From Elusimicrobiota bacterium (GTDB lineage Bacteria > Elusimicrobiota > Elusimicrobia > UBA1565 > UBA9628): DNA of 64,000 nucleotides. The notes under the pieces are model-generated. The model saw only the letters and a list, made by a program, of their open reading frames with translations, was not told the DNA's origin and made no database searches. The first letter of the stretch is position 1. Each line of letters opens with the position of its first letter. The DNA lies in contig DAIDHS010000001.1 in NCBI GenBank assembly GCA_027451985.1, positions 97,932-161,931 of the forward strand, given 5' to 3'. Shown here piece by piece: positions 2,670 to 25,736 of this stretch. The translations under genes and the position numbers were made by a program.

Positions 2670-2672
2670 GGG

Positions 2673-3428: not shown

Positions 3429-3441
3429 AGCGGAGCTCGCC

Positions 3442-4242: not shown

Positions 4243-4290
4243 AAGCGCGCTCTGCGGCCTCCTATTGGATTAAACTGGAATTTCGGGGAC

Positions 4291-4521
4291 TCACGGCGAT
4301 TTCCGCTCGAAGCCCTGAATGGGATTGACGACCTTGCCTTGCGCGTTGACCGCTTGCCTATATTCAAGCACTTTTTTCGTGATCTCCTCCGCGCTTTCGC
4401 GCACGAGGTAGCGGTTGCCGGTGGCCAGGCACACGACGGTTTCCTGGCCTATTTCCAGCGCCTCGATGATTTCCGCGTTGATGACCACGGCGGTCCCGTT
4501 GAGCTTGTGCAGCGTGATCAT
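4291..4521 (-). CDS. flbD: flagellar FlbD-like protein; likely true start is M11 of the track ORF
   Basis: The track ORF is 4291..4551. The internal start MITLHKLNGTAVVINAEIIEALEIGQETVVCLATGNRYLVRESAEEITKKV matches the FlbD consensus MIxLTxLNG...FxLNAELIE. Its ATG (4521..4519) overlaps the TGA of the upstream coiled-coil gene. Confidence 0.65.
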   Translation of the reverse strand: MITLHKLNGTAVVINAEIIEALEIGQETVVCLATGNRYLVRESAEEITKKVLEYRQAVNAQGKVVNPIQGFERKSP

Positions 4522-5948: not shown

Positions 5949-5959
5949 GGAACTTTCTC

Positions 5960-7957
5960 CTATCCTTTAATTTGCGCCTTGAAGCTTTCCACCCACTGCT
6001 GGATTTGCGGATCGGGGTGGGCTTCCAGCATTTTTTCATACTGGGCCAAGGCTTCGGGCGTGCGGCCCAACTGGTATAAAGCTGAGCCGAGGTATTGGCG
6101 GGCTTGCCATAGGTTTGGATCCAGACTTATGGCGTACTCCAAGTAAGGGATGCTTTGGTCGAATTGACCGGCATCATGAAAGGAGACGCCGGCGCTCAGG
6201 TAGTTTTGCGCCTGCGCCGGATCGGCGGGAGGCTGCGCCTCGCTTCCACCCGGCAAAGCTGCGGGCTCGTTTTTGTGCTTGGCGGCGGCAAAGCGCTGTT
6301 GGCGCTTGTTCTGGGCCGAGAGCTCCTCCTGCATGCCTTCGACGAGGTCGTAGCCGCCTGCCTCCTTGTTTCGAACGGCGATTTTGCCCTCTTTTTCAAG
6401 AACCTTGACCGTGTCGATGATTTTCGCCCGCTCTTCCTCGATTTGCGCGGGGGTGATGTTCTGCGAGTACTCCATCGATTCCTTGAGCAGCGCTGCAGCG
6501 CCCGCCGACATGTTGTTAAAGAACTTGTTGAGGACTTCGGGCGGGGCGTTTTGCAAGGCCTTGGCCATGCCCTCGGGCTTGAGCTCGCGGATGATGAGCT
6601 GCATCTCCCGATCGGGGAAATTGGCGGTGTCCTCGAAGACCAGGAGGTGCTTGCGGACATGCTCGTAGACCATGGGTTTTTCATTCTTGAGGTAGTTGAG
6701 AATGTTGTTGCGGGTCGCGGTGTCCGCCTCATCGATCATGGTGATGAGGCGCTCCAAACCGCCCACGACGAAGTCCACGTTCTCCTTCACGTCCGCGTCG
6801 ATGGCGACCACCTGCTCGCGGGTGACTTGGCGGACCGTCAGGGCCTCCATGGCGACGCGGGCCTGGAATTCGACGGGCAAGGACGTCAAAAGCTGGCGCG
6901 CGTAGTCCGGGCGCAGATAGCTGGCCACGACCGCCACTACCCAGGGCTCCTCTTTGCGCAGGAGGAACATGTAGGCCAGGCGCTTGATGTTCTCCTCATT
7001 GATATAAGCGAAAGGCTCGAATTTTTTCATGGACTCATCCTCCTCGGGCGGCGGGGGCGGGGGCTCCGGCGGCTTTCTTTGGAGGGTGATGTCCAGCTTG
7101 CCCTCCTCGGTCAGTTCGTCGTCGCCTTCGCCTTCGTCTTCGTCCGGCTGCTCGATCTTCGATTCGACGTTCACCTCGGCGGCCGGGCGCTCGCGCATCG
7201 CGCGGATGTACTGGCTCATGAAGCGCCAGAGCGGGCCGAAGAGGAACATCAGGAAAAGCAGAATGAGAATGGCGTAGAGAAGCGGCAGGTAAACCCACGG
7301 GTGCTTCAAGTCTTCGCGCCAATCCGTTTTGGCGTGATTGAAAGGCGTGGGCTGGAAAAAAACCTGATTGGGGGCAAGGTTGTACTGGGACATGGCGTCG
7401 ACGATGCGGCTGCGCACCAAATCCTGCTGGGCTTTGTCCTTGAGCACGCTCTGATCGTGGATGACCGTCACGGACATGCGTTTGAAGACCAGGTTCTCGG
7501 AGAAGTCTTCCTGTTGCATCCCTTTTTGCTCCTGGGCCTGCTGGGCGCTGGCTGCCGAAGGAGCCTGCGGAATTTGGGAAATGGTCTCGGGCTGGGGGAT
7601 GCCGGGGAGGACGAACTGGGTCTTGGTCTGCCCGGTTTTTTGCCCGCTGTTTTTTTCCTTGTATTTCTCGGCCAAGCCCATGCCTTTGCGGTTGGTTTCC
7701 TCGTTTTGGACTTTCAGCTGCATGCCCACGTCCACGAAGGCCATGGCCTCGCCCTTGCCGAGAATGGGGTCGAGAATTTCCTGATCGATTTTCTTTTCCG
7801 AGTCCTGTTTGATTCGATTTTGCTCCATCAGAAGGCCCAAATCGGGCGCTTGAATGACTGCGCCAGCGCGCGAAATGGCGGCGAGGACGGCCGCGCAAAG
7901 TAAAAACGCGGCGGCCCAGGCGCGTTGTCGTGGCTTCTGATGCGATTTTGGTGTCAT
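5960..7957 (-). CDS. chimeric membrane protein: FliF/SctJ-type ring-building motif + TM + FliG-like rotor domain + C-terminal TPR
   Basis: 665 aa. Residues ~150-235, KRMSVTVIHDQSVLKDKAQQDLVRSRIVDAMSQYNLAPNQVFFQ, resemble the FliF RBM (xSVTVxL...QxxAVxxLVxxAVxGL...V). A TM segment follows (PLLYAILILLFLMFLFGPLW), then an acidic/Pro-rich linker (PPEPPPPPPEEDE). Residues ~320-530, EENIKRLAYMFLLRKEEPWVVAVVASYLRPDYARQLLTSLPVEFQARV...GGLERLITMIDEADTATRNNILNYL...FNNMSAGAAALLKESMEYSQNITPAQIEEERAKIIDTVKVLEKEGKI, match FliG middle and C-terminal (ARM) domains. Residues 545-665 are TPR-like. Confidence 0.6.
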   Translation of the reverse strand: MTPKSHQKPRQRAWAAAFLLCAAVLAAISRAGAVIQAPDLGLLMEQNRIKQDSEKKIDQEILDPILGKGEAMAFVDVGMQLKVQNEETNRKGMGLAEKYKEKNSGQKTGQTKTQFVLPGIPQPETISQIPQAPSAASAQQAQEQKGMQQEDFSENLVFKRMSVTVIHDQSVLKDKAQQDLVRSRIVDAMSQYNLAPNQVFFQPTPFNHAKTDWREDLKHPWVYLPLLYAILILLFLMFLFGPLWRFMSQYIRAMRERPAAEVNVESKIEQPDEDEGEGDDELTEEGKLDITLQRKPPEPPPPPPEEDESMKKFEPFAYINEENIKRLAYMFLLRKEEPWVVAVVASYLRPDYARQLLTSLPVEFQARVAMEALTVRQVTREQVVAIDADVKENVDFVVGGLERLITMIDEADTATRNNILNYLKNEKPMVYEHVRKHLLVFEDTANFPDREMQLIIRELKPEGMAKALQNAPPEVLNKFFNNMSAGAAALLKESMEYSQNITPAQIEEERAKIIDTVKVLEKEGKIAVRNKEAGGYDLVEGMQEELSAQNKRQQRFAAAKHKNEPAALPGGSEAQPPADPAQAQNYLSAGVSFHDAGQFDQSIPYLEYAISLDPNLWQARQYLGSALYQLGRTPEALAQYEKMLEAHPDPQIQQWVESFKAQIKG

Positions 7958-8004
7958 GAACGTTTCGTGGGAATGTTAAAGGGAATTCATTACATTTTCA
8001 AGTC

Positions 8005-9627
8005 TCAAGGGCCCTGATTGGAGCCCTGGTTTACGCTGCCCAGGAAATTCTTGATCGTTTCGTTGGTTGGATCGATGGCCAGGGCTTTCTGCCACACGGC
8101 CGTGGCCTTGTCCTTTTGGTCCATCATGTAGAAGGCGCTGCCCATGATCTCGAGCGCCGTCACGTTGTTGGGCTCGATGTCCAGAATGTCCTGCGTTCGG
8201 CGCAGAGCCTGATCGTATTTTCCGTTGTACATGGACTGCCGCGCGTCATAAATCTTCTCCTCGACCCAGGTGAGTTGTTCGGGGCCGATGGGCTTGCGGG
8301 TGATGTCCTTGACGCCCGCCTCCTTCTCGACCATGTTGAGAAGGGCCAGGAGCCGATCATCCTTGGAATTCTTGTTGTAAGCGTAGCGCAGATCGTTGAC
8401 CGATTCTTGGAGATCCCGCCCGTCGACATAAGCGGCCACGCCCTTGCGAATGAAGGTCTGGTAGTCCTGTCCGCCCTCGGCCGAAGGGATGTAGGTCGTC
8501 ACGGCCATCAGGCGCGAGAGCATGGCCTCGACCTGCCTATTGCCCGGCTGAACGTCTAGGGCCTGGTTGAAGCGCTGCGAAGCGAGGGTAAAATCTCCTT
8601 CCTGGAAAGCTTGGAAGCCTGCTTTAAGCAAGGCTTGAACTTGTTCGTTGGATTTCTCGCCGCGGGCTTGGCCGAAGCGGAACGTCGCCGAAATGCGGGT
8701 CGTGGTGCCCAGATCGGACGAGAGGCCTTCGCCGAGATCGAGGCCGATGGAGTGAAAATCCAGGCCGAAGCCGAAGTCTGTCTCTTGGAGGCTGGGCAGG
8801 CCGCGCAGTCCGAAACGCGCCGCGAACCAGCGCGTCACCCAGAACTCGCCGCCGAAGCGGGCGTCGAATGCTCCGACGATGGGGCGGTAGACGTCAAAGT
8901 CCATCACCAGTCTGTCGCGAAAGAGGTAGAGGGAATTCCCCAGAATGACGGTGACGGGCAGATGGTCTTGGGTGTCTCCGCTGGTCCTTGAGAACGCGTT
9001 CTGTAGTCCCAGAGCCAAGTGATAGGGCCCCATCAGCTTCAAGGCTCCCAGATTGATGGTCTCGGAGGTGTCGGAGGAGCCGTCCAAGGCGCGAGTGATC
9101 TGCTGGACCGTCGCGCCGAAGGCCATTGACTTGGTGATGTATTTGCCCCAGCCGATGGAGATGGCCCGATCTTGTTCGCTGAAGCTTCCTCCGGTTGTGA
9201 TTTGGGTAGGCTCGCCCGTCGTGGGATCGAAGACGGCGCTGACTTGCTGGAAATTGCTGGAGGTTAATTGCGTGAGGCTCAGATCCAGGGTGCTGCTGCC
9301 CTTGAGCGGCTGCGCGTAGCTCAAGAAATCGAGGTTGGTCTGGTAGAAAAGGGTCGATTCCATGGCGGTGAATTCCTTGCGCTGGATTTGGGCTAGTCCG
9401 GCGGGATTCCAGTTAACCGCTGAGGCGTCGTCCGAGATGCCGTAGTACGCGCCGCCCATGGCTAGGGCGCGCGCGCCGACGCCGTAAGTGAGAAATTCCC
9501 CGGGCTGTCCTCCGGATTGGGCACGTGCGCGCAAGGGAGCGAAGATAAAAAAAACTGCTGCGGGCAAGCCCGCTGCCGCGAAGCGCCGCCGTCTTGGGGG
9601 CATGCCCCAAGGTCTCGTTTTGGCCAT
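8005..9627 (-). CDS. outer-membrane beta-barrel protein (FadL/PorV-like N-terminus) with C-terminal TPR repeats
   Basis: 540 aa. Signal peptide AAGLPAAVFFIFAPLRARAQ, possibly starting at internal M9. The motif YGVGARALAMGGAYYGISDDASAVNWNPAGL is typical of FadL/OMPP1/PorV-type barrels. Alternating beta-strand-like sequence runs to ~aa 330. The C-terminal 200 aa are TPR-like (ALLKAGFQAFQEGDFTLASQRFNQALDVQPGN...). Confidence 0.55.
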   Translation of the reverse strand: MAKTRPWGMPPRRRRFAAAGLPAAVFFIFAPLRARAQSGGQPGEFLTYGVGARALAMGGAYYGISDDASAVNWNPAGLAQIQRKEFTAMESTLFYQTNLDFLSYAQPLKGSSTLDLSLTQLTSSNFQQVSAVFDPTTGEPTQITTGGSFSEQDRAISIGWGKYITKSMAFGATVQQITRALDGSSDTSETINLGALKLMGPYHLALGLQNAFSRTSGDTQDHLPVTVILGNSLYLFRDRLVMDFDVYRPIVGAFDARFGGEFWVTRWFAARFGLRGLPSLQETDFGFGLDFHSIGLDLGEGLSSDLGTTTRISATFRFGQARGEKSNEQVQALLKAGFQAFQEGDFTLASQRFNQALDVQPGNRQVEAMLSRLMAVTTYIPSAEGGQDYQTFIRKGVAAYVDGRDLQESVNDLRYAYNKNSKDDRLLALLNMVEKEAGVKDITRKPIGPEQLTWVEEKIYDARQSMYNGKYDQALRRTQDILDIEPNNVTALEIMGSAFYMMDQKDKATAVWQKALAIDPTNETIKNFLGSVNQGSNQGP

Positions 9628-12812: not shown

Positions 12813-15398
12813 ATGGCCGATGAAAATTCGAATTTGAACAAGAACGGGGACAAGAAGGACGACAAGAAAGACGCCCTTCCTCCCACGCTCAAGGACTTCC
12901 AGAAAACCCGCATCAAATTGCAGGGCTCGGGTCCGCGCACGCTTCTAGAACGCATGAAGTCGTTCCGCAAAAAAGATTTGATGTTCATCCTTTCGGGTTT
13001 GGGGGTCCTGGTGGCGGCGCCTTTGGCCGAGCATTTGATGATGGGCTCGCAGCCCAACAGCGGCTTTCATCAGGGTTGGGATTTTAAGAACGGTTTGGGC
13101 GGCTTTGGCGGCGGCGGTTCGCCCTACGAGCCCGGCATCAACGGCTTGGCTCCGGGCCAGGCCGCCGGCGGCAACGGCGACATCATCACGCCCTTCAACG
13201 CCCGCGATCCCGCATCGCTCATTTTGAGCCCAGACGCTTCGGCCCAGCCGCCCGTGGGCTCCTCGAACGCGCCTTCATCCGACAGTGGCGGCCAGGACAA
13301 CGGCCAAGCGCCGTGGAAGAACGTGCTGGCCCAGGCCGGCGGCAACGCCGCGAACGCGGCGAGCCAAAGCGCCGGCCTGCCCACCGCGCCTCCCGCCTTG
13401 GGCGACGGCATTTTCAGCGCGCACGGTCCCGCGAACAGCACTTCGGCCTCTTACACGCCGCCCCCGATTTCGGCGGCCAACGTTCCCAATAGGGCGGCGG
13501 GCAACGACTCTTTGTCGCAGGTGCACGGCAACGGCGTCAGCGGCGCCTCGCCTTACGGCTTGACCAACGGCGGTTCCGCGGAGGGCTTGAAGAGCGCGGC
13601 CAACCAAGCCGGCGCTTATTTCAACCGGCCGACCTCGGCCGCGGGAAATTTGGAGAAGGCCGCCGCCGTCAACACGCCGACCGGCGGTTCGGGCAGCGCG
13701 GGCTCCGGCATGGGCGGGTCCCAGCAAGATAAGAATTCCGGCCAGGACTCGAACAAGAACAGCAAGTCCGCCGGAGAATCGCTGGCGGAGAAAGCCGCCG
13801 AGCAGAACCAGCAGCACGCCATCGATTTGTATTGGAAGAAGCTTGAAGAGCAGCAGATGGCGCCCATTAAGCTGCAGGAAGATATTCAGAAGACCATCGT
13901 CGAGACTCCGATTAAGGCCATCATGGATGAGGTCGGCAAGCAAATGGCTGCTGAGGTTAAGAAACAGTTTGCGGGCGCAGATACCGAATATACATGTACC
14001 AACGTCCCGGCTGAAATCGCAAAACAGATTCCGAACGGAATCTTCTATAACTGTGGTACTTCTGAAGCGAATAGTTTTTATTGCGTAAGCACTGATGACA
14101 ATTCGACGCTTATTGAACAAGATCCTACAGGTGCTGAAAAAGGTGGACCAAGCAGTAAGCCTACAGGCGCTACTTGCTCTGCATTGCCTTCTAAGGCTCC
14201 GCCTGATGGTGGTGGCGGACCTAACGGCGCTGGCAGCGGCCAGGCGGTCAACTTGATTGGAAACAAGAGCGCGGAAGCTGTCGATGCGGGCGCCTCGGCC
14301 ATCCTGGTTAATTTGGACAAGCTTTGCAACGCGGCTTCGGCTAATGAACAGGCGGTTCATCATATGTTTTCCGGCAACACAAGCATGCCGTTCGCTCATG
14401 ACGCAGGGAAAATCTATAATTCTACTTCAAAGACCGGTCCTGCGCATGATGTCGCCAAGGCTGTATATGAGCTGAGCGGAGACGCCTCCGAGGCCTGCGG
14501 TGTCAGTGGCGATGGTCATGACACGGCCATGGGACAAATTGGCGCTGCCAATACGAGCCTGAAGGCGGCTCGGTTTGACTTCCAGAGGGTTGCGGATAAT
14601 GATGGCGCAGCTTCGGATATCGCCGTCAAAATATTGTGTGGAGATTCCCAATCCTGCCAGCTTTCTCAAGTGGCAAAAGATGCCGCAGCCGGGAATGCCC
14701 AGGCAGTTCAGAATTATTGGAAGCCTATCCCGCAGCAGCTTCAACAAAACACTAAAAATGTGGATGGCAGCCTGACACAGGCCCAGGCTGCTCTGAAAAA
14801 AGGAGAGAAGGATATGGAAGCCGCAAACGCGGCCTTATCTAAAGCCGATAAAAAGATTGCGGACAATACAAACAATGGACCAGCTGCCGCTGAACAGATA
14901 AGCACCCTTATTAATGGAGATGGGGCCGGTTCCCCGTTTGCCAATTTTAAAGGAACGGTAGATAAGATTCAATCCAGTTACCCGCAATTGGTCGCGGCAG
15001 CTCAGAATCAGTCGGCCTCCTATCATGCTTTTGCCCAAACATACGCCCAACTACAGCCACCAGCACAAGCGGTTGTGAACGAAACTCAGCAGTCGTTGAC
15101 TCAACCGGCGCCTAATCCGCCGGCAGATCTTTCGTTAATAATGAAAAATCAATATTCTTTTGTTACACTCATGAATACAGATACTGCAACAAACGTGATA
15201 TCTAAGACGTTGAAATCTATAAGTAATTTTTGTCAAGAAGAATGGAACACCCAGGAAACTGTTGCTAAGGCGGAGTCGAATTTTGCGACTCAAGTGGCTA
15301 AGGCTCCTTTGGCGCCTGCACAAGGCGGCCAGAACGCGACTCCTAGCGCGAGCGATGCCCTGACTCGTCTTGGTGGGGCGTCCGCGTCAGCGCAATAA
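12813..15398 (+). CDS. hypothetical large membrane-anchored low-complexity surface protein
   Basis: 861 aa. AGGAG RBS. Single TM near the N-terminus (LMFILSGLGVLVAAPLA). Long G/A/S/N/Q-rich extracytoplasmic region with scattered Cys. The 3' ~1.5 kb of the gene has clearly lower GC than the rest of the window. Confidence 0.55.
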   Translation: MADENSNLNKNGDKKDDKKDALPPTLKDFQKTRIKLQGSGPRTLLERMKSFRKKDLMFILSGLGVLVAAPLAEHLMMGSQPNSGFHQGWDFKNGLGGFGGGGSPYEPGINGLAPGQAAGGNGDIITPFNARDPASLILSPDASAQPPVGSSNAPSSDSGGQDNGQAPWKNVLAQAGGNAANAASQSAGLPTAPPALGDGIFSAHGPANSTSASYTPPPISAANVPNRAAGNDSLSQVHGNGVSGASPYGLTNGGSAEGLKSAANQAGAYFNRPTSAAGNLEKAAAVNTPTGGSGSAGSGMGGSQQDKNSGQDSNKNSKSAGESLAEKAAEQNQQHAIDLYWKKLEEQQMAPIKLQEDIQKTIVETPIKAIMDEVGKQMAAEVKKQFAGADTEYTCTNVPAEIAKQIPNGIFYNCGTSEANSFYCVSTDDNSTLIEQDPTGAEKGGPSSKPTGATCSALPSKAPPDGGGGPNGAGSGQAVNLIGNKSAEAVDAGASAILVNLDKLCNAASANEQAVHHMFSGNTSMPFAHDAGKIYNSTSKTGPAHDVAKAVYELSGDASEACGVSGDGHDTAMGQIGAANTSLKAARFDFQRVADNDGAASDIAVKILCGDSQSCQLSQVAKDAAAGNAQAVQNYWKPIPQQLQQNTKNVDGSLTQAQAALKKGEKDMEAANAALSKADKKIADNTNNGPAAAEQISTLINGDGAGSPFANFKGTVDKIQSSYPQLVAAAQNQSASYHAFAQTYAQLQPPAQAVVNETQQSLTQPAPNPPADLSLIMKNQYSFVTLMNTDTATNVISKTLKSISNFCQEEWNTQETVAKAESNFATQVAKAPLAPAQGGQNATPSASDALTRLGGASASAQ

Positions 15399-15481
15399 TG
15401 TTTTTATTTCCAGGTTGCCGCCTTTTGCGCGGAGAGTCTCTTGGTGTGTGGACAAAAAACGGAACTCCTGCTATTCTTTTT

Positions 15482-15533
15482 GGGCCTAAAGTCCTATTGA
15501 CAGCTAGGCCCTTTGGGTCTGGCGAAATAGGAC
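15482..15533 (+). promoter_or_regulatory. nested inverted repeats (GGGCCTA/TAGGCCC and GTCCTATT/AATAGGAC) enclosing a TTGACA hexamer, upstream of the secreted-protein gene
   Basis: gggcctaaagtcctattgacagctaggccctttgggtctggcgaaataggac. The 8-mer arm is shared with the hairpin at 18278. Confidence 0.4.
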
Positions 15534-15554
15534 CGATGGGTTTACAACAGTAAT

Positions 15555-18173
15555 ATGAAGCGAACAGCGACGGCGGCCCTGGCGGCGGCGATTTTTGCTG
15601 GCCTTTCCGGCGTGGCGCTCGCGCATGAAGACGCGCCCAAAAATCCTGAAAGTTCCCAAGGGACGCTGGAGACCGTGGTCGTCTCCGCTCCGTCCTATTG
15701 CGAGGAGGAAGGCGACGCGGCGGCCGCTAAAATGGCCGCTGGGAATATTTTCCTCAGGGACGTGCTCAAGCAGGGCATGCCTACCCAGTTCCCTCCCGGG
15801 GTGTCCGATTGTCTGGACCAATGGTTCGACGTTTCGTCCCGTTCGGCCGCGGATTTGAAGGTGGAGTGCGAGATGCTCTATTCGCCCAGGGGATCGATGC
15901 AGATGAGATCCGAAGCGGTGCGCTATGGGAAGGCGCATCATCTTACCGCAAAGACGCCTTTGGGTGCGCCGACACCGCAGGACTCCACGGCGCCGCTCCC
16001 GACCTTGGGTTGCGGTAAGATTGACGGGTTTTTGTCGGATTTGGAAAGCGAAGCGAAGAGGTTGGCGCCGAAGATTCTCGCGCAGCAGGCTGCGGAGGCC
16101 AGAAAGCAGGAAAAAGCGGAAGAGCAAATTCCAAACGCATTCTCTATCAAGAAATCTCCCGGCAGTGTGAACGCGGCTGGCGCGGACTCTGTCACACCAA
16201 TTAAGGCCTCAATGTCCTCTTTGGCCGATACCACATCCTATGTGATGGTTCCTGAACAAGACGCCGGCGACATGTATCTCGCCGGCGCGGAAAAAGAGAC
16301 GGTCTGCCTTCCGCCCGCTCAAGGCGGCAAATGCTGGAAGCTGGCTCTAAAGGTTGTCTCCAGCGTCGGAGCCGCGGACCAGGCCGGCGTCGGCAAGGTG
16401 GGAGATAATTACATCGCCGTGGTGGACTACACCAACCCGGAGCATATCACTCAGGTGACTTTCCCCGATGTAGTTTGCAATCCCGCGGGTTCTTCGCCGT
16501 GCAATAGTTTTGATTTATCGGGCGAAGGGAAAAAATACAAATTCAGCCTGGGCCGCGACGACGACGGAGGCCTCACGATTTTCCGCGCCGATTCAGGGCC
16601 GGCGACCAGACCGCCCAAGAAGAAAGGGTTCTGGGGCGGTATTGAGAACTTGTTCAATGACGTCAAGTACGATGTCGCCAGCATGCTCCATGGCACCACG
16701 CTGACGCCGGTGGCCTACACCTCAACAGCGCAGCTCTACATGGATCGCAACGACGAGATTCAAAACCGCCCCACCGCCCAAGTGACGCTTGGCGGGCAGA
16801 AATTCAACATCATCAGCCAGGGCGGACCGCGCGGATGCCTGCTCTTTTTTGCCGTGGGCGCCGACGGCGGCCCCATGACGACCAACGACGGAGAGTATCC
16901 GGGATACAAGCCGAACATGATGGCGTGCGTCAATCAGGCCGAACCCGATGGCGTGCCCCAGATGATTTCCGGTCCGCAGTGCCTGGGCAGCTTTCCGCAC
17001 GGCGACCAAAGGGATACATATTCCATTCAGTGGCTGCCGCATTCTGCGGGAGGGATAGGGAGCGATTATAAGATCAACAAGATCCCGGAAGGCACCGGCG
17101 CATGCGCGCCGCCGGATCCCGCAGGATCCAAGCCTGACAAGCCGTCGGGTCCCGCGAGCAATCCCGGAACCAATCCGACGCCGGCTTCGAACAACCAATG
17201 CCAGTCCGGAGAGGTGCTTCAGGGCAAGACCGGCAAATGCTGCCCTTCCGGCGAGCAGCTGAGCGCGGATGAAAAACAATGCGTTACGCCGGATTCCGGA
17301 CAAAACCAGTGCGAATATAATTTGAACGGCGAAAACGCCTCTGGCAACGCAAAAATGAAGGTTCGGGATTTGGGCGATGGCTATGCTCTTTATCTTGGAA
17401 CCTATGATGCGGGGCAAGGCACAAAACTGTATCAATCGTATGTTTGCGATGAGAGCCGTATGATACAAGTCCCGGGAGTGGTTTCCGGGAATGTTCAATC
17501 CAAGAACGGCGAGATCAGCATTACGGCGTACAATCTCGGATATGACGGCAGTGTTTCACCCAAAGATTTTGCGGACATGACCCCTTTCCCAGCCGCTAGT
17601 GACGTGGCCAAGAAAGGCTTTCCTGAGGATTTTGTGAAACTCAAGGATGGTCACGACTTGGAGTTCTCGAAGTATAATCAAGGGTCAAATGCACAGATGT
17701 CAAAAGCACAGATTTACAATCTCCCCGAGGACGACTTCGGAACTTCGGCGCCTAAAAAAGCGCTGCTGTCGCAAAATGTAGCGAGTTCGATCGTAGCCAT
17801 CGATCCGCTCAGGAACGAAGTTTCCGAGATCGATGTTTATCCGCGCGGGGGCAGCGTTACGGCGGCGGTCCGAAACGCCATCAATAATCAGCTTCAAAAT
17901 ATGGATAAAGATCAGGCAGCCGCCCTTCAAAACGATAAAAATGGAGTTTTGAAGGATAGTTTGGGATTGCTTCCCTCGGATGCGTCCGTGGAGATTCATT
18001 TCGTATCGGGGCAGAACGCGTCCCAGGCGACTGGTTGCAGCCCGGCCGTAACCGCTTCCTATAGTGCCAAGGGCAAGACTGTGAGCAAGACCCTTGTGGA
18101 TTACCAGTTCGGCAAGCCTGCCGTGACGCTGTCTCCGTTTATGGCGCGTTGCGAGCCGAAATCGAAGCCGTAG
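15555..18173 (+). CDS. hypothetical secreted Cys-rich protein
   Basis: 872 aa. Cleavable signal peptide MKRTATAALAAAIFAGLSGVALA. Many Cys pairs (CCPSGEQLSADEKQCVTPDSGQNQCEYNL; GKCWKLALKV; VVCNPAGSSPCNSF). No enzymatic motif recognised. Confidence 0.55.
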   Translation: MKRTATAALAAAIFAGLSGVALAHEDAPKNPESSQGTLETVVVSAPSYCEEEGDAAAAKMAAGNIFLRDVLKQGMPTQFPPGVSDCLDQWFDVSSRSAADLKVECEMLYSPRGSMQMRSEAVRYGKAHHLTAKTPLGAPTPQDSTAPLPTLGCGKIDGFLSDLESEAKRLAPKILAQQAAEARKQEKAEEQIPNAFSIKKSPGSVNAAGADSVTPIKASMSSLADTTSYVMVPEQDAGDMYLAGAEKETVCLPPAQGGKCWKLALKVVSSVGAADQAGVGKVGDNYIAVVDYTNPEHITQVTFPDVVCNPAGSSPCNSFDLSGEGKKYKFSLGRDDDGGLTIFRADSGPATRPPKKKGFWGGIENLFNDVKYDVASMLHGTTLTPVAYTSTAQLYMDRNDEIQNRPTAQVTLGGQKFNIISQGGPRGCLLFFAVGADGGPMTTNDGEYPGYKPNMMACVNQAEPDGVPQMISGPQCLGSFPHGDQRDTYSIQWLPHSAGGIGSDYKINKIPEGTGACAPPDPAGSKPDKPSGPASNPGTNPTPASNNQCQSGEVLQGKTGKCCPSGEQLSADEKQCVTPDSGQNQCEYNLNGENASGNAKMKVRDLGDGYALYLGTYDAGQGTKLYQSYVCDESRMIQVPGVVSGNVQSKNGEISITAYNLGYDGSVSPKDFADMTPFPAASDVAKKGFPEDFVKLKDGHDLEFSKYNQGSNAQMSKAQIYNLPEDDFGTSAPKKALLSQNVASSIVAIDPLRNEVSEIDVYPRGGSVTAAVRNAINNQLQNMDKDQAAALQNDKNGVLKDSLGLLPSDASVEIHFVSGQNASQATGCSPAVTASYSAKGKTVSKTLVDYQFGKPAVTLSPFMARCEPKSKP

Positions 18174-18353: not shown

Positions 18354-21300
18354 ATGGCGTCAAAATTCTTGGCGGCAGCGCTGGCCTTTTTGACCGCGCT
18401 TTTCCCCGGCCTCCAGGTCGTCTGCGCGCAGGCGATGAGCGCGGTCGAAATTCCCGCCCAAGGGAATATCAACCCGCAGAACATCTCCAGCCTGAATCTC
18501 TCGCTGAATCAAATCAACGACTTGATTCATTTGATCCAGTCGAACGAAGCGCAGAGCGCGGGTTCTCCGTTCGGTGCGAACCTGTCCCAAGAAGATTTCA
18601 ACCAGATGCTCCAGTACCTGGAGCAGCTTAAAGCATACTATGGCCACTCCGGACGGACGATGCCTCGGGCCGTGGCGCAACGGGTCCAGACGCTGATGCA
18701 GGATATCAAGAGCGGCAAGGTGGATCCGGGCATCGCGTTCGCCAATTTCTACGCGGGCACCGCGCCGGCGGTGGAAGCCGTCCAGACCGGGGACATCACC
18801 GAGAAGCCAAGTTATCCCAATGCCCGTGAAACCGACATCGTGCGCAAGGATTCCGTCACCGGGAAGGTGGTCTCTTATTTACGGAGCATCCAGGAAGACG
18901 CCGTGGTCCGTCTGGTCATCAGCAGCTTGCCCGATGCCTCAGCGCCTGGAGGCAAGGCGGTTGACATCATCGCGTTCGTGGGGCAGGAAGGCGCGGCCCA
19001 GGTCCAGCACCCGCTTTATAGCCGGGGCATGGAGATTTTGCTTAAGGCCCTGGTTAAGCTGTATTACCAGCAGCCCGATTTGCAGGCAAAAATTGACAAG
19101 GCCTCCGGCGCGGCCAAGGCCAAGCTCCAGGCCTTGTTGGCGGCGAACCGAAAAACCTTCCCTCCGGAAATTAATTCCTACCTTCATCATCTGGGGCAAA
19201 TCGAGAGCGAGAGCGGCGGATTGGCCGGCCACGACTGGACCGACGCGGACTATCAGGAATATGAGAAGGTCGCCCAGATCGCCCAGGACTTTTACGCCAA
19301 AAAAGAAGGAACCGGCCTGGAAAAGCGGGCGCTGGCCATCTTCACCAGCTACATCGCCATGGCGACGAACAGCAACCCCGTGCAGGAGAAAGACGGGCTG
19401 CAGGAAGGAGGGCTTGATGCCGAGCCCATGGCCCAACTGCAGAAGGCGCTGACCAGCTTTGAAAAGGGCCAACTATCCGGCTATAAAACCATCTTGTCCT
19501 GGCTCCACGACACGCGCATCAATTATGCGGATTGGCCGGCTCAGATCAGCCAGCAGGCCGCTGAAATCGTGGCCGACTTGGGATACGCTTCCTCCGACGC
19601 TGGCCAGGCCTTCGCGCACACGACAGGCTCCATGCAGAAAGGGAAAGCCGCGCAATTGGACCGGCAGGAGCACGAAGCCGCGTTGGCGGCCCGCAACGGC
19701 TGGCTGAACCTGTCCAACCTCCAAATCCTGTCGTTCCAGATGAAGATGTTGGCGATTGCCGTTGCCAAGCTCAAGTACGGTGACATGCGCGGGCACGTGG
19801 GGATTCAGGGCGATAAGAAAATGCAGGATGAGGCCGATCGCCTGATAAAGACGCTCGAGCAATACCTGATGCAAATCGAGGAATGCGTCAAGCAGTCGCG
19901 GGATAATTTAATGAGGCAGGCTATTGCCGGTTTTTACCTCGATTTGCAGAATGCGCAGATGAGCTATCTCTATGGCGGCGCCCTGCGCAATCAGGTTTTG
20001 GACATGGCGGCCAAGCTCGAGGAGATGGAGAGCCTCTATCTGTCCCAGCAGTTTGACAAGAAAATGACCGGCCTGCGCTCCGCTGATGAAAGTTCCGCCA
20101 TGGCCGGCAACGCTTACAAAGAATTCCTGGCGCATCTTCCCCCGGATGTCGTTCCGTTGGTCAAGTCCATGGATGCCTTGCAGGCCGAGCTGAAATCCAT
20201 CGCGGGCCTCAATGATTCAAAAGCGATCCGCCAAGCTCTCTGGCCTGTGTGGAAGCAATTCGCCGCCATTGCGGAAAAGCTGGGCTATCGGGGAATCCCG
20301 GATGAAGACACGGTGGACAAGGACTCCAAGGCTTTGTCGCTCAAACAGGCTAAGCTCATGCAGGCGGCGCAGCAATTCGCCATCCACTTGAACATGTTCG
20401 ATACGGCCAACCAGTACAACTTGATTCTTCTGCAAAACGCCAGTTCCCAGCGGCTGCCGGGCGTCAGCGATCATTGGTACAGCAAGTTGCCGCAGCGGGC
20501 GGAGGGAGCGGTGATTTCCGGCGGCGCCAAAGCCATCAACGGGGTGACCAACGCCGGCATTTGGCTCCTGAACAGGCTTCCCGGGGTTAATATCTCCTAC
20601 AAGCACATCCATGCCAGCTATGATTCATTGACGGACGCGGGCGTTGAGCACGATGGAACGCTGGTGACCGGTATGCTGCGCGGGGTGGGCGACAGTGTTT
20701 CCTGGAATTCCACGCTTTTCCACAACTTCATGATCCGCAAAGACTTGCGCGCCAAGATGCTTGATCAGCTTCGCGCGGGCGATTTCACTGGCGCGGAGCA
20801 GACTTGGGTCGACATAGACCCAAGCGGCGCGGCGCAAGCGTGGGACATGCACATCCGCGAGAAGGCTCCGGACGACAATCTTTACAATCTGGATATTGGA
20901 AAATTCGTGGCTCACGCTCCGGACGACAGGTTGATGGTGGAATCGGGGGGCGCCATGCAGGATTTGGGCATGATGCTCAAGCCCATCATCATGGCCTACC
21001 AGCTGACTTCGGCGGCCATTGATACGGTCGTCATGACGGTCGTCACGCTCGGTTTCGGCGCCGCAGTCGGCACGACATTGCGCGCCGTGGGCGGCGCGGG
21101 GGTGGCAATCGCCCGGGGGCTGGGCATGACCGCGGACGCGGCGGACGTGGCCGAAGGTCTTGGGGATGCCGCCAGAGCCGGGGAATTGGCCTCGGATGCC
21201 GCCGACGCGGCTGATGTCGGTGCTAACCTTGGGCAAGATGCTAAAGATATCGGAACGATCCGCCGGATTGCGTCTTCGACCATCGGATTTATAGGCAAGC

Positions 21301-24300
21301 ACTTGGAATCTTGGGGAACGGGCATGCGCAACGTGGTCGGATTGTCCGACGTTTCCCAAGGCGCGTCCAAGGCCGTCGTGCTGCGGCAGATGATCCAGTC
21401 GTCCGCGAAATTTACCGTGGGCAACGCGGTCATGATGTCCGGCGTTTCCGCGGGCATTTCAGGCGTTGACTATCTGCGCCATCCGGAGACGTCGAACGCT
21501 CAAAACTTCTGGGACGCGTCGCTTGAAGGCGCTATCGGAGGACTGTCCTTCGGCGCGCGCTCCGGCCCTCTGTTCTTGCTCATGCCGCAGGCTTCGGCAT
21601 TCGGCGCCGGGACCATGGGCAAGGCCGTTCGCGGCTTGGCTGATTCTCCCGGGCCTCTCAATGGATTGGTCCGCCTTGGGGCGAAGCTAATTCCTGGAGC
21701 CGCCGACACGGAGATTGGGGGCGCTTTGATAGATAAAGGCTTGTGGGGGTCCATCGGGACTTTGGGCGATTCTCCGCTTTTAGAGCAACTCGCGCGGACC
21801 TCGGCGCACTTCGGAGCGATGGTCGACGGCGCCTTGAAATACATGACCGCCAATTCGATTGCGGAGAATGCCGCGCAATTCGCGGCTTACGAGCGAGATG
21901 CCCACAAGACGCTTGGCGCGGCGGAGAAAAAACAGTTGGCGGACGAGGGATCGAGCCAACGCACTTACGCTTTACGGTCGGCTTTATCTGCGGGAGACGC
22001 TGCGGGACAAGCCAGTTGGTTCCTGATTCCCCAGAATCAAATGGGCAGCGCGAAGGATCGGGAACAAGGGATTACGCATGCCGGGGCGCTCAGCGAGATG
22101 CTTCATCAGGATCGCGGCCTTGATATCGAGATGGCGACCAAAGACCAAACGCTCTATGTTGATAAGCCGTGGCTCCAGCAATCCTGGAGAGAGCGGGCTC
22201 GCGGCCTGGGGAATTTTCTTTTCTCAAGCGAGCATAAGGCGACCGCGCCGCGCATGGAGCTAAAAGTAAGCGAGGCGGATCGGGAAGCGGCCGCTGTTGA
22301 GAGGATGAAGGATTTCAGCGGCGCGGATCTTTTGGCGGTCACGGAGGCGCCCAGGGATGAGGTGCGCGGGAAAGTCCTCGGGCTTTCCGATCTGAAAGGA
22401 ATGCTGGGCGGGGAATACGACGGTGCGCCCGAGGCGCCGCAGCCGGCAGGGAATGTCGTGGATATCTCCCAGGAACGCACTAGGCGCGGCACGAAGCAGA
22501 AAGCCAAAAAAATCGAAGCTGAGAGCGCGAGGACTTACGAAAATCTGCCTCAGCGGGATAAATTGGACGCTCAGAGCGTGCGCATGAGCGATGAAATTCA
22601 GGAGGCGGCTCGTTCCCAGCTCAAGAAGTGGCTTAAGAATAACCCGGATGAAATTGCGAAGATTCGGACGGCTGTGGAAGCGGAGAAAAACGGGAAATCC
22701 GGGAAATACATGATGCCTGATGGCAAAGGAGGAGAAATCGCCGTGCGCGGCGAGCCTTTGAAGAAGCTCGCGAATTTGGCGGCGCTGCAGGAAATTGCCT
22801 CCGGAGCCCAGCCCCGCACGGCGGCGGAAAAAACGAAGGCTTACTGGGAGCGCGTCAAGGATTCTTTAAGCGGCAAACCTATTAAGGACGGTTATCAAGT
22901 CCTGGTTTCCGATCTGCGCGGGGAGATCCACGGCGATACGGCGAAGGAAATCATCGATTCGACCCAGCAGGCGCTTCAGAACAGAATTGATTTAAGAAAG
23001 TCGCAAGGCAAGGAGAATAAGACGTGGGCGCTGGAGCAGGTCCGCTCGACCATAGAGTCGGATGCCTACATAGATTACGTCAACCGCAAGATGGCCGAGG
23101 ACATATCCGCTTACCGGAAAGGGAATCTTTCCGATGCGCAGCTCGACGCGGACGTTAAGCTATTCCGGGACGTTTGGGAGGAAGGCGTCTTCGGCAAGCG
23201 GTTTAAGAAGAGCGCGGACCAGAAAGGTAACGCGGTGTGGGATATCCCACCCGAATACCAATTCAAAGACGCTCACGGTCATCTCGTGACCAGTTTCAGG
23301 GATTTCCAAGCCGCCTCCATCGAATCGGTTATCAAGGATTTAGCGGCGGGACGCAATAAAATTTTCCGCCTTCTGGAAACGGGCGGCGGAAAGACTCTTT
23401 TAAGCTTCACCCTGCTAAGCCTTTTTAACACCATGGCGCAAATGAAGGGCCGCGAGGGCGCCATTTACGCGACGTCCAACGCGAACTTGGTCGCGCAGGC
23501 CAATGAGGCCTACCGGGCGTTTTTTAAGGGCCGCGAGGCGCCGTTCAAGATCGAAACCTATGAGCAGGTCATGCTGGATCAGGCGCTGGCCCAAGCCCAT
23601 GGGCGGCTGAGCCCTTACCAGACGCATTATGTCATCAACGACGAGTACGATCAATTGGGCACGCAGACGGCTCTGTCATTGGGTAGTCCCAACGGTCGAT
23701 TGAGCTTCCCATCCATCGATCCAATTCAGGCGGCCATGCGGGAAGGAGCCTTGGAGGCGCGCGGCACACTGCACGACGAGTTCGGCGGAAAGGATTTGGA
23801 TGAAAAATCCATTGCTGAGCTGCAAAGGGAAAATCCAGCTTTTGCGGCGAAGATGGACGCGTTGAGCGCGCACACGGCCAGCAATATTCAGGAAGCCATC
23901 CGCCGAGTGAACTCGAAGGCGTTTAAAGCGCAGGTGCTGGATATCCACTCTGAGCTTTACCGAAAAGCGCAGGCGAAAGGGCAGATTCCAGAGTTTTCGT
24001 CCGTCGCAGAGTATGAGGCATATTTCCATATGACGCCGGAGCAGGTTTACGGCACGATGCAGAGGGAAGTTAAGCACGCTTTCGGCGAATACGCGTTGCC
24101 CGGCTGGGTGCAGACCGCTTTCCATTGGGCGCACCTTGATCTTCCCATGCCTGAAGCTCTGCAGAAGGCGACAAAGAGCCGGACTTTTATGGCCGGGTTG
24201 CCGCTTGACGCGTTCGTTAAGGTCGGGGTGATTGAGCGGCAATTCGGCAGTCTGCAAGATTGGATCAAGGATAACCTTGAGGGCGCCTATATCGTGGGTT

Positions 24301-25736
24301 CTTTCAGCCCGGAGAAACTCTCTGCGATCTATGCCCGCGGCGAAGAGGTCGACCCGAGCCATCCGGAAGAATTGCACCAGTACCACGCGGACGTGCCCAT
24401 GGCGAACTTGGACACCAAATACCGCGGCGCGCTCCAGCTGATTGAGAACAAACCCCTGGAACTCAAGTACGACAATATGGCTGTCGTTGACTTCGCGGCG
24501 TTGAATGCGGCTGCGCGCGAAGGCGGCGGCGTGGTGGTGGCTTTGTCGGGAACTCTCCCTGGGCCGGAAAGACGCTTTTTGAGCAAGCAGGGTTGGAAGG
24601 TCTCGGGAGAGGGCAGCGCCCCGGCGCAGGTTGAATACAAAGCCGTCGAGCCCGGCATGGCTGACAGTGTACTGGCGAAAGACGTTGCTCAGGACGCCAA
24701 GATTAACGGCGCCGGGAAAGAGAAGGTTCTGCATATCGTTTTCCTGCCCAACAAGGCTCAGCAAAGAGCCTTTGAAGCGAAGCTTGAGCAGGCCGGCGTT
24801 CCCGCCTCCCGGCGTTCCGTGGTGGTAACGCCCGACTCCAATTTGCAGGAAAATGAAAGACTGATGTATCAGGTGCGGGACGCTAAGAACTTGAAGGCTT
24901 TGAGCAAGGGCGACGTTGACGTGGCCATGATCGTTGGACGATCGGGCATTCGCGGGCTGGACATCGATTTCGGGGCCTACGCTGGCGGGCGCATTGAGTT
25001 CGACATCATCGATCCTCAGGATTTGTCCATGACCGATCTTATTCAGCTCGTCGGACGAGCGGCCGAGGGACGCCTGCCTAAGAATACCAGCGGCAAGCCC
25101 TCCATCTCGGTTAGCTTCCACGGGATCGTGGACAGCAAGGATTTGCCGGAGTCGCTGAGGAAAATTGAGGGTACGCCGGAATTCAAGGCCGAGTTTGAAA
25201 AATATGTTCAGCAGGCGCAGAAAAACGCGGAAGAGGCGGCTCTGAAATCCTCCGGAATTTATGATTACAAAGCGCCGCAACTTCCCAAGTTTTTACGGTT
25301 CATGCAGAAAAAAGCGCCGAAGCCTTCAATTCGCGTGCCGAGCGGAACGGGTGTGGGTGGAGGTCAAACACAGGTAGTCGTGCCGCAAGGCAGCTCTGTT
25401 GAACCGATGGCAAAGCGAGTCAAGGACGAGGAAGAACGACCGCTGTGGTCTTCCTCTCCAAACGTGACGTGGCAGGAGAATGCCCGGCGATATTGGAATA
25501 GCCACCGCAGCAAGTTCCCGGAATATAAGAATTGGCGCGAGTACGTCAAGGGAGCGAACGAGTTCGTCAATCGGCCGCCACTGGGTACCCTGGCTAAAAC
25601 CCAGCCTAACGGCGATGTCGTTCTTTATAACCCTCAGACCAACACCTTCGTCATTCGCACCGCCGATGGGGTTCCGCGAGCGATGTTCAAACCTAAGGCT
25701 GGTATGAAATACGCGGCTAAGTACCTCGGCCAATAG
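18354..25736 (+). CDS. giant 2460-aa protein with signal peptide, central hydrophobic segment, embedded SecA-like DEAD-motor ATPase and a distinct ~110-aa C-terminal module
   Basis: Signal peptide MASKFLAAALAFLTALFPGLQVVCAQA. Hydrophobic segment AIDTVVMTVVTLGFGAAVGTTL at ~aa 880. The motor region (nt ~23260-25090) has Walker A FRLLETGGGKTLLSFTLLSLFN...ATSNANLVAQANEAY (SecA: [22 protein letters not shown]...TVNDYLAQRDAE), the DEAD-equivalent HYVINDEYDQLGTQTALSLGSPNG (SecA: [22 protein letters not shown]), motif III VVALSGTL, motif V MIVGRSGIRGLDI (SecA: ATNMAGRGTDI) and motif VI LIQLVGRAAEGRLP (SecA: NQLRGRSGRQGD). C-terminal module ...WNSHRSKFPEYKNWREYVKGANEFVNRPPLGTLAKTQPNGDVVLYNPQTNTFVIRTADGVPRAMFKPKAGMKYAAKYLGQ. 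Confidence 0.7.
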   Translation: MASKFLAAALAFLTALFPGLQVVCAQAMSAVEIPAQGNINPQNISSLNLSLNQINDLIHLIQSNEAQSAGSPFGANLSQEDFNQMLQYLEQLKAYYGHSGRTMPRAVAQRVQTLMQDIKSGKVDPGIAFANFYAGTAPAVEAVQTGDITEKPSYPNARETDIVRKDSVTGKVVSYLRSIQEDAVVRLVISSLPDASAPGGKAVDIIAFVGQEGAAQVQHPLYSRGMEILLKALVKLYYQQPDLQAKIDKASGAAKAKLQALLAANRKTFPPEINSYLHHLGQIESESGGLAGHDWTDADYQEYEKVAQIAQDFYAKKEGTGLEKRALAIFTSYIAMATNSNPVQEKDGLQEGGLDAEPMAQLQKALTSFEKGQLSGYKTILSWLHDTRINYADWPAQISQQAAEIVADLGYASSDAGQAFAHTTGSMQKGKAAQLDRQEHEAALAARNGWLNLSNLQILSFQMKMLAIAVAKLKYGDMRGHVGIQGDKKMQDEADRLIKTLEQYLMQIEECVKQSRDNLMRQAIAGFYLDLQNAQMSYLYGGALRNQVLDMAAKLEEMESLYLSQQFDKKMTGLRSADESSAMAGNAYKEFLAHLPPDVVPLVKSMDALQAELKSIAGLNDSKAIRQALWPVWKQFAAIAEKLGYRGIPDEDTVDKDSKALSLKQAKLMQAAQQFAIHLNMFDTANQYNLILLQNASSQRLPGVSDHWYSKLPQRAEGAVISGGAKAINGVTNAGIWLLNRLPGVNISYKHIHASYDSLTDAGVEHDGTLVTGMLRGVGDSVSWNSTLFHNFMIRKDLRAKMLDQLRAGDFTGAEQTWVDIDPSGAAQAWDMHIREKAPDDNLYNLDIGKFVAHAPDDRLMVESGGAMQDLGMMLKPIIMAYQLTSAAIDTVVMTVVTLGFGAAVGTTLRAVGGAGVAIARGLGMTADAADVAEGLGDAARAGELASDAADAADVGANLGQDAKDIGTIRRIASSTIGFIGKHLESWGTGMRNVVGLSDVSQGASKAVVLRQMIQSSAKFTVGNAVMMSGVSAGISGVDYLRHPETSNAQNFWDASLEGAIGGLSFGARSGPLFLLMPQASAFGAGTMGKAVRGLADSPGPLNGLVRLGAKLIPGAADTEIGGALIDKGLWGSIGTLGDSPLLEQLARTSAHFGAMVDGALKYMTANSIAENAAQFAAYERDAHKTLGAAEKKQLADEGSSQRTYALRSALSAGDAAGQASWFLIPQNQMGSAKDREQGITHAGALSEMLHQDRGLDIEMATKDQTLYVDKPWLQQSWRERARGLGNFLFSSEHKATAPRMELKVSEADREAAAVERMKDFSGADLLAVTEAPRDEVRGKVLGLSDLKGMLGGEYDGAPEAPQPAGNVVDISQERTRRGTKQKAKKIEAESARTYENLPQRDKLDAQSVRMSDEIQEAARSQLKKWLKNNPDEIAKIRTAVEAEKNGKSGKYMMPDGKGGEIAVRGEPLKKLANLAALQEIASGAQPRTAAEKTKAYWERVKDSLSGKPIKDGYQVLVSDLRGEIHGDTAKEIIDSTQQALQNRIDLRKSQGKENKTWALEQVRSTIESDAYIDYVNRKMAEDISAYRKGNLSDAQLDADVKLFRDVWEEGVFGKRFKKSADQKGNAVWDIPPEYQFKDAHGHLVTSFRDFQAASIESVIKDLAAGRNKIFRLLETGGGKTLLSFTLLSLFNTMAQMKGREGAIYATSNANLVAQANEAYRAFFKGREAPFKIETYEQVMLDQALAQAHGRLSPYQTHYVINDEYDQLGTQTALSLGSPNGRLSFPSIDPIQAAMREGALEARGTLHDEFGGKDLDEKSIAELQRENPAFAAKMDALSAHTASNIQEAIRRVNSKAFKAQVLDIHSELYRKAQAKGQIPEFSSVAEYEAYFHMTPEQVYGTMQREVKHAFGEYALPGWVQTAFHWAHLDLPMPEALQKATKSRTFMAGLPLDAFVKVGVIERQFGSLQDWIKDNLEGAYIVGSFSPEKLSAIYARGEEVDPSHPEELHQYHADVPMANLDTKYRGALQLIENKPLELKYDNMAVVDFAALNAAAREGGGVVVALSGTLPGPERRFLSKQGWKVSGEGSAPAQVEYKAVEPGMADSVLAKDVAQDAKINGAGKEKVLHIVFLPNKAQQRAFEAKLEQAGVPASRRSVVVTPDSNLQENERLMYQVRDAKNLKALSKGDVDVAMIVGRSGIRGLDIDFGAYAGGRIEFDIIDPQDLSMTDLIQLVGRAAEGRLPKNTSGKPSISVSFHGIVDSKDLPESLRKIEGTPEFKAEFEKYVQQAQKNAEEAALKSSGIYDYKAPQLPKFLRFMQKKAPKPSIRVPSGTGVGGGQTQVVVPQGSSVEPMAKRVKDEEERPLWSSSPNVTWQENARRYWNSHRSKFPEYKNWREYVKGANEFVNRPPLGTLAKTQPNGDVVLYNPQTNTFVIRTADGVPRAMFKPKAGMKYAAKYLGQ

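Follow-up and report, generated by a model that had tools for sequence, protein, structure and literature searches.

When GC content falls abruptly in the middle of a gene, does the fall record the recent arrival of foreign DNA or a long-standing property of the gene itself? The question is raised by two adjacent genes in a 64,000-nucleotide stretch of an Elusimicrobiota bacterium genome (GenBank assembly GCA_027451985.1, contig DAIDHS010000001.1, positions 97,932–161,931 of the forward strand), which we call the window and whose numbering is used throughout. The two open reading frames (ORFs) are as follows.

g861, 12813–15398, plus strand: coding sequence of an 861-amino acid bitopic membrane protein, belonging to a family found only in Elusimicrobiota.
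g872, 15555–18173, plus strand: coding sequence of an 872-amino acid, Cys-rich secreted protein with a predicted signal peptide (amino acids 1–23) and 20 Cys.

A first-pass annotation, made from the sequence alone, had noticed a depression of GC in the 3' halves of both genes and had taken it to fit a recently acquired or recombined C-terminal cassette. We find that the composition break coincides with a break in conservation, and that the shift recurs across orthologues with no outside donor found. The dips probably mark ancient, recombining, hypervariable allelic modules of two adjacent envelope proteins, in which AT-shifted synonymous sites have persisted, rather than a recent import.

The depression itself is real. 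GC is 0.367 at 14041–14100 (the string quoted in the first-pass annotation does start at 14041), 0.361 at 15121–15300, and 0.413 at 17880–18000, giving a range of 0.361–0.413 for the stretches that had been named. The mean for the 64-kb window is 0.602, lower than the ~65% first ascribed to most of it. Both ORFs are open throughout the low-GC tracts, which are in frame as had been stated, and other segments below 47% GC are nearly all intergenic. A profile of GC and codon usage along the genes, which had been proposed as a check, confirmed the step and placed it mainly at third codon positions (GC3), where the dip chiefly lies in both g861 and g872. The 3' 57% of g861 (13930–15395) has a GC of 50.7% and a GC3 of 0.48; its 5' part has a GC of 0.628 and a GC3 of ~0.80, and 24 other genes of the window have a GC3 of ~0.75. 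Taken 40 codons at a time, GC3 in g861 is 0.72–0.90 at 12993–13892 (at least 0.78 at 13053–13832) and 0.25–0.62 across 13953–15392. The break thus lies inside the gene and not at its boundary, as had been claimed, with the step in g861 at 13878–13996. Two troughs stand out within the depressed part.

GC3 trough 1, 13986–14183, plus strand: the deepest trough (GC3 0.25–0.33), over a Cys-containing β subdomain (amino acids 392–457) directly past the junction described below.
GC3 trough 2, 15063–15302, plus strand: GC3 0.33–0.38 and GC 0.36, near the 3' end of g861.

The depth and length of the depression set these genes apart from the rest of the window. Among 1838 segments of 60 codons drawn from 27 ORFs, the 19 lowest in GC3 are all within g861. 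Over 500 codons, the minimum GC3 of the 24 other genes is never below 0.654, as compared with 0.477 for the C-half of g861; over 260 codons, it is never below 0.635, as compared with 0.542 for g872 at 17235–18014. The compositional effect is therefore strong for g861 and modest to moderate for g872. The GC3 of the g861 C-half (0.48) is near the GC of the local intergenic spacers (0.41–0.52).

The encoded proteins do not dictate this composition. We computed the GC and GC3 to be expected if each encoded amino acid used codons at the frequencies of the window. For 13893–15395, GC is 0.508 as against an expected 0.603, and GC3 is 0.477 as against 0.754 (z = -14.7); for 17235–18014, GC3 is 0.542 as against 0.739 (z = -7.4). 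Amino-acid bias accounts for only about 2 of roughly 12 GC points and is ruled out as the cause by the codon-usage expectation. Because the amino-acid composition predicts ~60% GC, the drop sits at synonymous sites, and the composition shift is synonymous. The first-pass annotation had reasoned that a composition shared by orthologues and explained by amino-acid bias would speak against a cassette; the drop is indeed shared by orthologues, but amino-acid bias is not its source. An explanation through amino-acid composition or artefact (Asn/Lys/Thr/Ser-rich sequence, a wrong frame, or a chimeric metagenome assembly) could draw on the C-half of g861, in which Gly and Pro are scarcer than in the N-half, and on the origin of the window in a metagenome-assembled genome. 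However, a 1.5-kb open frame at 51% GC with invariant Cys and a confident predicted fold argues for coding sequence, and at least six independent assemblies share the architecture and the junction, so that we regard this explanation as extremely improbable.

What, then, happens at the step? We compared the locus with syntenic loci from the close lineages L001/L002, L005/L006, and L003/L004, and with the short contigs L007, L008, L013, and L014. The comparison divides g861 into two modules that meet at a junction.

N-module of g861, 12813–13929, plus strand: conserved; cytoplasmic tail, transmembrane segment, Gly/Ala/Ser/Pro-rich linker, and long helix (amino acids 324–386).
Junction zone, 13878–13996, no strand: nucleotide homology ends here for all relatives, and GC3 drops.
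C-module of g861, 13930–15395, plus strand: hypervariable; folded ectodomain, GC 0.507, GC3 0.48.

The genes flanking the g861/g872 locus are 81–98% identical in protein sequence to those of the relatives. Upstream of the junction, blastn homology amounts to 76–88% nucleotide identity and stops in six independent assemblies, with alignments ending at 13878 (L003), 13880 (L005), 13926 (L001), 13929 (L014), 13948 (L007), and 13996 (L008). Homology is back at 15448–15481 in the four assemblies that reach that far (L001, L005, L008, and L013). In between, no DNA similarity is detectable between the C-module of the window and those of its close relatives. At the protein level, g861 is 72–100% identical to its L001 and L005 orthologues up to amino acid ~360 (mostly 78–97%) and 12–50% identical beyond it (mostly 15–38%), and where identity falls, GC3 declines too, in the window as in each of the three orthologues compared. 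Among the six close genomes, N-modules are 84–94% identical in amino acids, and they are 65–71% identical to that of P0003; C-modules of close genomes are 22–35% identical, with one pair at 53%. The N-module of the window is 84–93% identical to those of close relatives and 31–47% identical to those of family members outside the close set. A comparison with variants, as first suggested, thus finds the low-GC tracts to be hypervariable between close relatives. The junction anchor has no special nucleotide-level conservation, its synonymous identity being like that of the rest of the N-half.

The two modules also differ in apparent age. Between the window and L007, synonymous (dS) and nonsynonymous (dN) divergence (Nei-Gojobori) is 0.21 and 0.055 in the N part, and 1.47 and 0.69 in the C part, the latter dS being inflated through alignment error at ~30% amino acid identity. 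Between L001 and L005, dS is 0.31 and dN 0.033 in the N part; in the C part dS is saturated and dN is 0.92. As synonymous divergence jumps from the N to the C part, the C-half alleles are far older than their flanks, and positive selection on amino acids alone would not bring about such a difference. Nor do the C-modules follow the relationships of the genomes that carry them. The best match to the C-half of the window is that of P0003 (35–36%, 200–219 bits), a genome whose N-half (66–72%) lies farthest from the window within the close set; C-halves of nearer genomes are 26–32% identical.

L001 and L002 are identical throughout the variable region, with differences only outside it. The two are identical over 19.5 kb, variable modules included, and at positions 1–3067 of the locus they differ by 13–16% across motB and motA and by 2–6% in the next two genes; the pattern points to a recombination tract or else to chimerism in the assembly. 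The contigs of L014 (5 nucleotides past the junction), L007, L013, and L008 end at or inside the variable modules of g861 or g872. This suggests assembly breaks from strain heterogeneity at exactly these segments, such breaks being expected if populations are heterogeneous there.

These comparisons bear on the possibility that the segments diverged in place at an accelerated rate, whether by local hypermutation, by a diversity-generating mechanism, or under strong positive selection, and accumulated AT-biased mutations without any exchange of modules. Hypervariability is restricted to defined segments, and divergence is very high even between genomes 88% identical in DNA, both as such a process would have it. 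Mutational bias in bacteria is generally reported to be AT-ward, and the direction of the shift agrees with it. However, the incongruent relationships run counter to divergence in place, and positive selection alone would not saturate dS. The window contains neither a template/variable repeat pair nor an internal repeat. We also considered the variable region as the target of a diversity-generating retroelement (DGR): no reverse-transcriptase family was found in Pfam scans of the two genes and their neighbours, which covered part of the window's ORFs, no direct repeats were found, and the variable region is ~1.5 kb long as compared with ~0.1 kb in DGRs. Silent cassettes, DGRs, and invertible segments were rejected, repeats being only at chance level (16–24 nucleotides); searches of the 64-kb window with both genes, by blastn and tblastn, returned self-matches only, with no orphan C-terminal cassettes. 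We consider divergence in place without module exchange improbable.

The second gene has a related organization, with three modules.

N-module of g872, 15627–16166, plus strand: amino acids 25–~200; hypervariable, GC3 0.55–0.78, which is near normal.
Core of g872, 16167–16994, plus strand: amino acids 205–480; conserved, GC3 0.57–0.80.
C-module of g872, 16995–18170, plus strand: amino acids 481–872; variable and incongruent, includes the low-GC3 tract at 17235–18014 (GC3 0.54).

No similarity is detectable in the N-module among six genomes. The core is 45–79% identical and follows the genome phylogeny, with 73% identity to the nearest relative. The C-module is 24% identical to that of the nearest genome (L013) and 48–50% identical to those of the more distant L001 and L005. 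Judged from these alignments, g872 is a mosaic of variable, conserved, and variable segments whose module relationships contradict the genome phylogeny, and both GC-depressed tracts lie in hyperdivergent, incongruent modules bounded by conserved segments. The g872 family is very narrow, with three other clusters among 5.8 billion proteins.

One of the conserved segments lies between the two genes.

Leader, 15449–15554, plus strand: non-coding leader/promoter region of ~106 nucleotides, between two variable modules and upstream of g872.

The leader is conserved at the nucleotide level in five relatives (77–83% similarity in L001, L005, L008, and L013), while the coding DNA on either side is unalignable. 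It contains a promoter-like site at 15449–15477 (TGGACA-N17-TATTCT) and a predicted hairpin without compensatory changes, and it has no match in Rfam. The leader may be a regulatory element, a homology anchor for recombination between the variable modules, or both. A small immunity-like gene in the spacer was considered and rejected, as the 51-amino acid ORF at 15398–15553 is not conserved at its 5' end.

The GC3 drop extends through the g861 family. GC3 is higher in the N-half than in the C-half at 29 of 33 family loci, some of which are duplicates (Wilcoxon p = 1.8e-6), with means of 0.842 and 0.705, respectively. In these loci, from genomes of 50–69% GC, C-half GC3 is never more than 0.03 above that of the N-half. 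Six close relatives have a different C allele each, yet all are GC3-depressed. The C-half is hypervariable family-wide, N-halves that are 90–96% identical being paired with C-halves that are 25–67% identical.

Such a distribution is hard to reconcile with recent horizontal acquisition, in which the C-terminal segments would have come from a lower-GC taxon or a mobile element and would not yet have been ameliorated. Acquisition would account for the sharp intragenic step in GC and GC3 and for the incongruent phylogeny of the modules, and the differing size of the drop among family members is as a history-dependent process predicts; the same signature in CdiA-CT regions and Rhs tips is usually so read (PMC4725963; PMC7259588). 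However, all six alleles of the six close relatives are depressed, genomes of 50% GC also have C below N, and C is never clearly above N, unlike what random exchange among lineages of 50–69% GC would produce. Searches for a donor gave the same answer. The C-half of g861 alone had no match in a word-indexed search of 5.8 billion proteins, and HMMER against 1.84 billion representative proteins returned only P0003, P0005, and P0002 as C-half relatives, all of them same-gene orthologues, so that the supposed derivation of the low-GC tracts from lower-GC taxa found no backing there. The C-half had no match in viral contigs, phage genomes, or plasmids either. No tRNA, integrase, flanking repeat, silent cassette, or template repeat occurs at the locus or in the 64-kb window. 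An island from a low-GC donor was rejected, there being no relatives outside the lineage and no mobility signatures at the borders, and we hold recent acquisition to be unlikely. Of the cassette first proposed, the hypervariable modules, sharp junctions, and incongruence stand; its recent acquisition does not, given the lack of a donor and the drop shared by orthologues. As the drop is common to orthologues with different alleles and no donor was found, a recombining, fast-evolving ectodomain that has kept this composition over the long term is the better reading, and a local drop in GC need not mean recent foreign DNA.

Selection for codons would be another way to maintain a long-term shift. 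AT-ending or rare codons might be favoured in the ectodomain for slow translation during insertion, export, or disulfide folding, or for unstructured mRNA. The position of trough 1 is what this explanation would predict, most close relatives having their deepest trough at this structural position although the sequences are unalignable. Against it, several family members are without a drop, with GC3 at 0.90–0.94 in both halves, and the shift runs for ~490 codons, where a pause site would be short. GC3 instead tracks conservation over the whole cluster: in nine syntenic genes, GC3 and amino acid conservation are correlated with a Spearman rho of 0.53–0.56, or 0.40–0.43 without g861 and g872. Functional codon choice is accordingly very unlikely in our estimation.

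The reading we prefer, that of ancient modules exchanged by recombination, implies a mechanism, and we infer from the patterns above that modules are replaced by recombination, as well as what drives the replacement and what causes the AT shift. The conserved anchor, linker, and long helix of g861 carry a folded, ~490-amino acid, disulfide-containing, mostly helical C-terminal domain, existing as many very old, mutually unalignable alleles; g872 has its conserved core between two variable modules. Alleles would be replaced as whole modules via homologous recombination, with junctions in the conserved flanks: where the N-module ends, in the leader between the genes, in the core of g872, and where the next gene begins. 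The driver is likely to be selection, diversifying or frequency-dependent, on surfaces that are exposed or that interact. If the alleles are too divergent for heteroduplex formation and codon-level constraint is weak, then AT-biased mutation would not be offset by the GC-favouring force (putatively biased gene conversion and/or selection) that would keep GC3 near 0.75–0.85 elsewhere in the genome. Recombination and GC content show a positive relation within bacterial genomes (PMC4450053).

Several observations weigh against this mechanism, beginning with the inflation of dS by alignment error in the C part. The size of the GC3 drop ranges from 0 to 0.33 among family members, and there is no drop in L021, L027, L035, L038, L041, and L055, whose C-halves are equally variable; hypervariability alone thus does not force low GC3. 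No segment is more variable than the N-module of g872, yet the GC3 of that module is close to normal. Finally, the same C allele on different N backgrounds was not found among the family loci. Because the drop is absent in some lineages, the g872 N-module has normal GC3, and no allele is shared between two backgrounds, a history-dependent component, with import from AT-richer relatives followed by amelioration, may also contribute.

What kind of protein carries such a module? For g861, 52 homologues were found, and wherever a source name is given it is Elusimicrobia or Elusimicrobiota. Neither g861 and g872 nor the upstream g542 and g363 has a match in Pfam, NCBIfam, PADLOC, PHROG, or PDB sequences. 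A metagenome scan with a single protein as query gave no matches, and one with an alignment-based query did. Both gene products had been described as secreted; this stands for g872, with its signal peptide, but g861 is a signal-anchored membrane protein.

Transmembrane segment of g861, 12978–13043, plus strand: single segment (amino acids 56–77), preceded by a Lys/Arg-rich cytoplasmic tail.

This segment is the sole hydrophobic 19-mer peak of g861 and corresponds to a helix at amino acids 53–77 in an AlphaFold2 (AF2) model. The protein would accordingly have its N-terminus inside and its C-terminus outside. All nine Cys of g861 are in the C-half, and C395 and C455 are invariant in 53 sequences. 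The AF2 model, built on a 53-sequence alignment, has a mean predicted local distance difference test score (pLDDT) of 60. It shows disorder at amino acids 77–254 and 290–323 (pLDDT <50), followed by a helix (324–386), the β/Cys subdomain (392–457), and a helical bundle with pLDDT 80–96 for much of amino acids 480–760; over the C-half as a whole, pLDDT is 80–96 for much of amino acids 390–760. The model thus portrays the C-half as a real folded domain with invariant Cys. Prediction by AF2 from the single sequence gave a pLDDT of 38 for the C-half and no usable model, and fold searches with the alignment-based model gave generic helical-bundle matches only. The linker (amino acids 78–323; 13044–13780), though predicted to be disordered, is the best-conserved part of the family and carries the invariant motif GDIITPxNxRDPxSLI, suggesting that it contains conserved binding motifs and is not a passive spacer.

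Directly downstream of g872 are two giant ORFs, at 18354–25736 (2460 amino acids) and 25825–41658 (5277 amino acids), with no Pfam domain save a weak ResIII-like match in the 2460-amino acid protein. Orthologues of the latter in L001 and L005 have a precomputed match to PF18451 (CdiA_C), which the window copy does not have. On the other side, a divergent operon on the minus strand (2673–9627) encodes MotB, MotA, an ORF of the size of FlbD (in the gap at 4243–4517), a 476-amino acid coiled-coil protein, a 665-amino acid FliG(M/C)-TPR fusion, and a 540-amino acid TPR protein. Its synteny with the row of genes from g542 to g5277 is kept in three close relatives. The operon looks like a motor without obvious flagellar context in the window, and nothing relevant was found in the literature on an Elusimicrobia FliG/MotA system. 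Envelope-associated genes flank the giant ORFs: 43863–47082 encodes a LysM and glucodextranase-B-like protein and a protein with a glucodextranase C-terminal (SLH-like) binding module, the pair adjoining a Cache/HAMP/PAS histidine kinase. Downstream of the gene, distant family members seem to have a variable hotspot. The g861-family gene in L012 (12682–16511) and L011 (13554–16495) is followed by HepT/MNT toxin-antitoxin-like genes, AAA_14/DUF4143 genes, or a transposase.

More speculatively, g861 and g872 might be polymorphic, co-evolving parts of an undescribed Elusimicrobiota envelope system, in which an anchor presents swappable ~490-amino acid helical-bundle heads, possibly ClyA-like and membrane-active; we think this doubtful. 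If true, the system might serve self/non-self recognition, contact-dependent antagonism, or phage-receptor evasion, and it would be encoded beside the 2460- and 5277-amino acid domain-less giants and the MotAB-FlbD-FliG/TPR motor-like operon. The comparisons in any case flag g861 and g872 as probable targets of diversifying selection by phage, predators, or competitors, the two genes having the unusual motor-like operon and the giant ORFs as neighbours. In this dark-matter protein family, a GC3 step inside a gene, read from raw sequence, pinpointed where hypervariable modules begin and end.

Known systems resemble g861 in part. TolA and TonB anchors have an N-terminal single transmembrane segment, a long, extended or disordered Pro/Gly/Ala-rich linker, and a C-terminal globular domain. 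The transmembrane anchor, disordered linker, and globular C-terminal domain of g861 are similar in architecture only, and genes for MotA and MotB, of the ExbB/TolQ superfamily, lie 9 kb upstream on the opposite strand. Unlike these anchors, g861 has no TonB_C or TolA Pfam match, is much larger, and has a C-terminal domain that is hypervariable rather than conserved; the MotAB link is positional only and missing in distant family members. A TonB/TolA-type anchor is therefore not supported. As in pore-forming toxins of the ClyA family, the predicted C-half of g861 is an elongated antiparallel helical bundle with a small β element, and ClyA, AhlB/C, NheA, Hbl, and YaxB recur among its top structural matches. 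The scores are not significant, and identity as a ClyA-type toxin is at most tentative.

Hypervariable surface proteins offer a second comparison. The central domain of flagellin, S-layer cassettes, and the variable regions of pilins occur as divergent alleles, and the variable part is often lower in GC than the genome. Like these, g861 appears to join a conserved anchor or assembly part to a variable, putatively exposed part with ancient, recombining allele classes. Its anchor, however, lies in the inner membrane, the cell being presumably diderm, so that the variable domain may be periplasmic, and no silent-copy or phase-variation machinery was found at g861/g872.

The most extensive parallels are with the polymorphic toxins. 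Rhs elements have a GC-rich core and an AT-rich variable core-extension (PMC7259588), GC falls abruptly under 50% in CdiA-CT/immunity regions (PMC4725963), and the diversity of Rhs and CdiA is generated through recombination of C-terminal modules or cassettes (PMC3482391). There are clear differences. Unlike Rhs and CdiA, g861 is without an RHS/YD, TPS, FHA, PAAR, LXG, or toxin domain in Pfam, NCBIfam, PADLOC, and PHROG scans, a regular-expression search of the protein found no VENN or PxxxxDPxGL junction motif, and no orphan cassettes lie within the 64 kb. The g861 junction comes instead after a conserved helix (...IDLYWKKLEEQQMAPIKLQE...). Its variable part is a helical-bundle domain of ~490 amino acids, as compared with 100–300 amino acids in polymorphic toxins, and in place of the small immunity gene of CdiA/CdiI pairs there is a conserved 156-nucleotide spacer and then the 872-amino acid signal-peptide protein. 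As in Rhs and CdiA, however, a conserved N-part is joined in frame to a hypervariable C-part at a sharp junction, GC drops abruptly over the variable part, and variability runs into the start of the next gene, the N-module of g872, next to the variable tip of g861, being likewise hypervariable. Polymorphic-toxin loci are the closest analogues of g861, which, while not classifiable as a C-terminal-displacement locus, resembles one.

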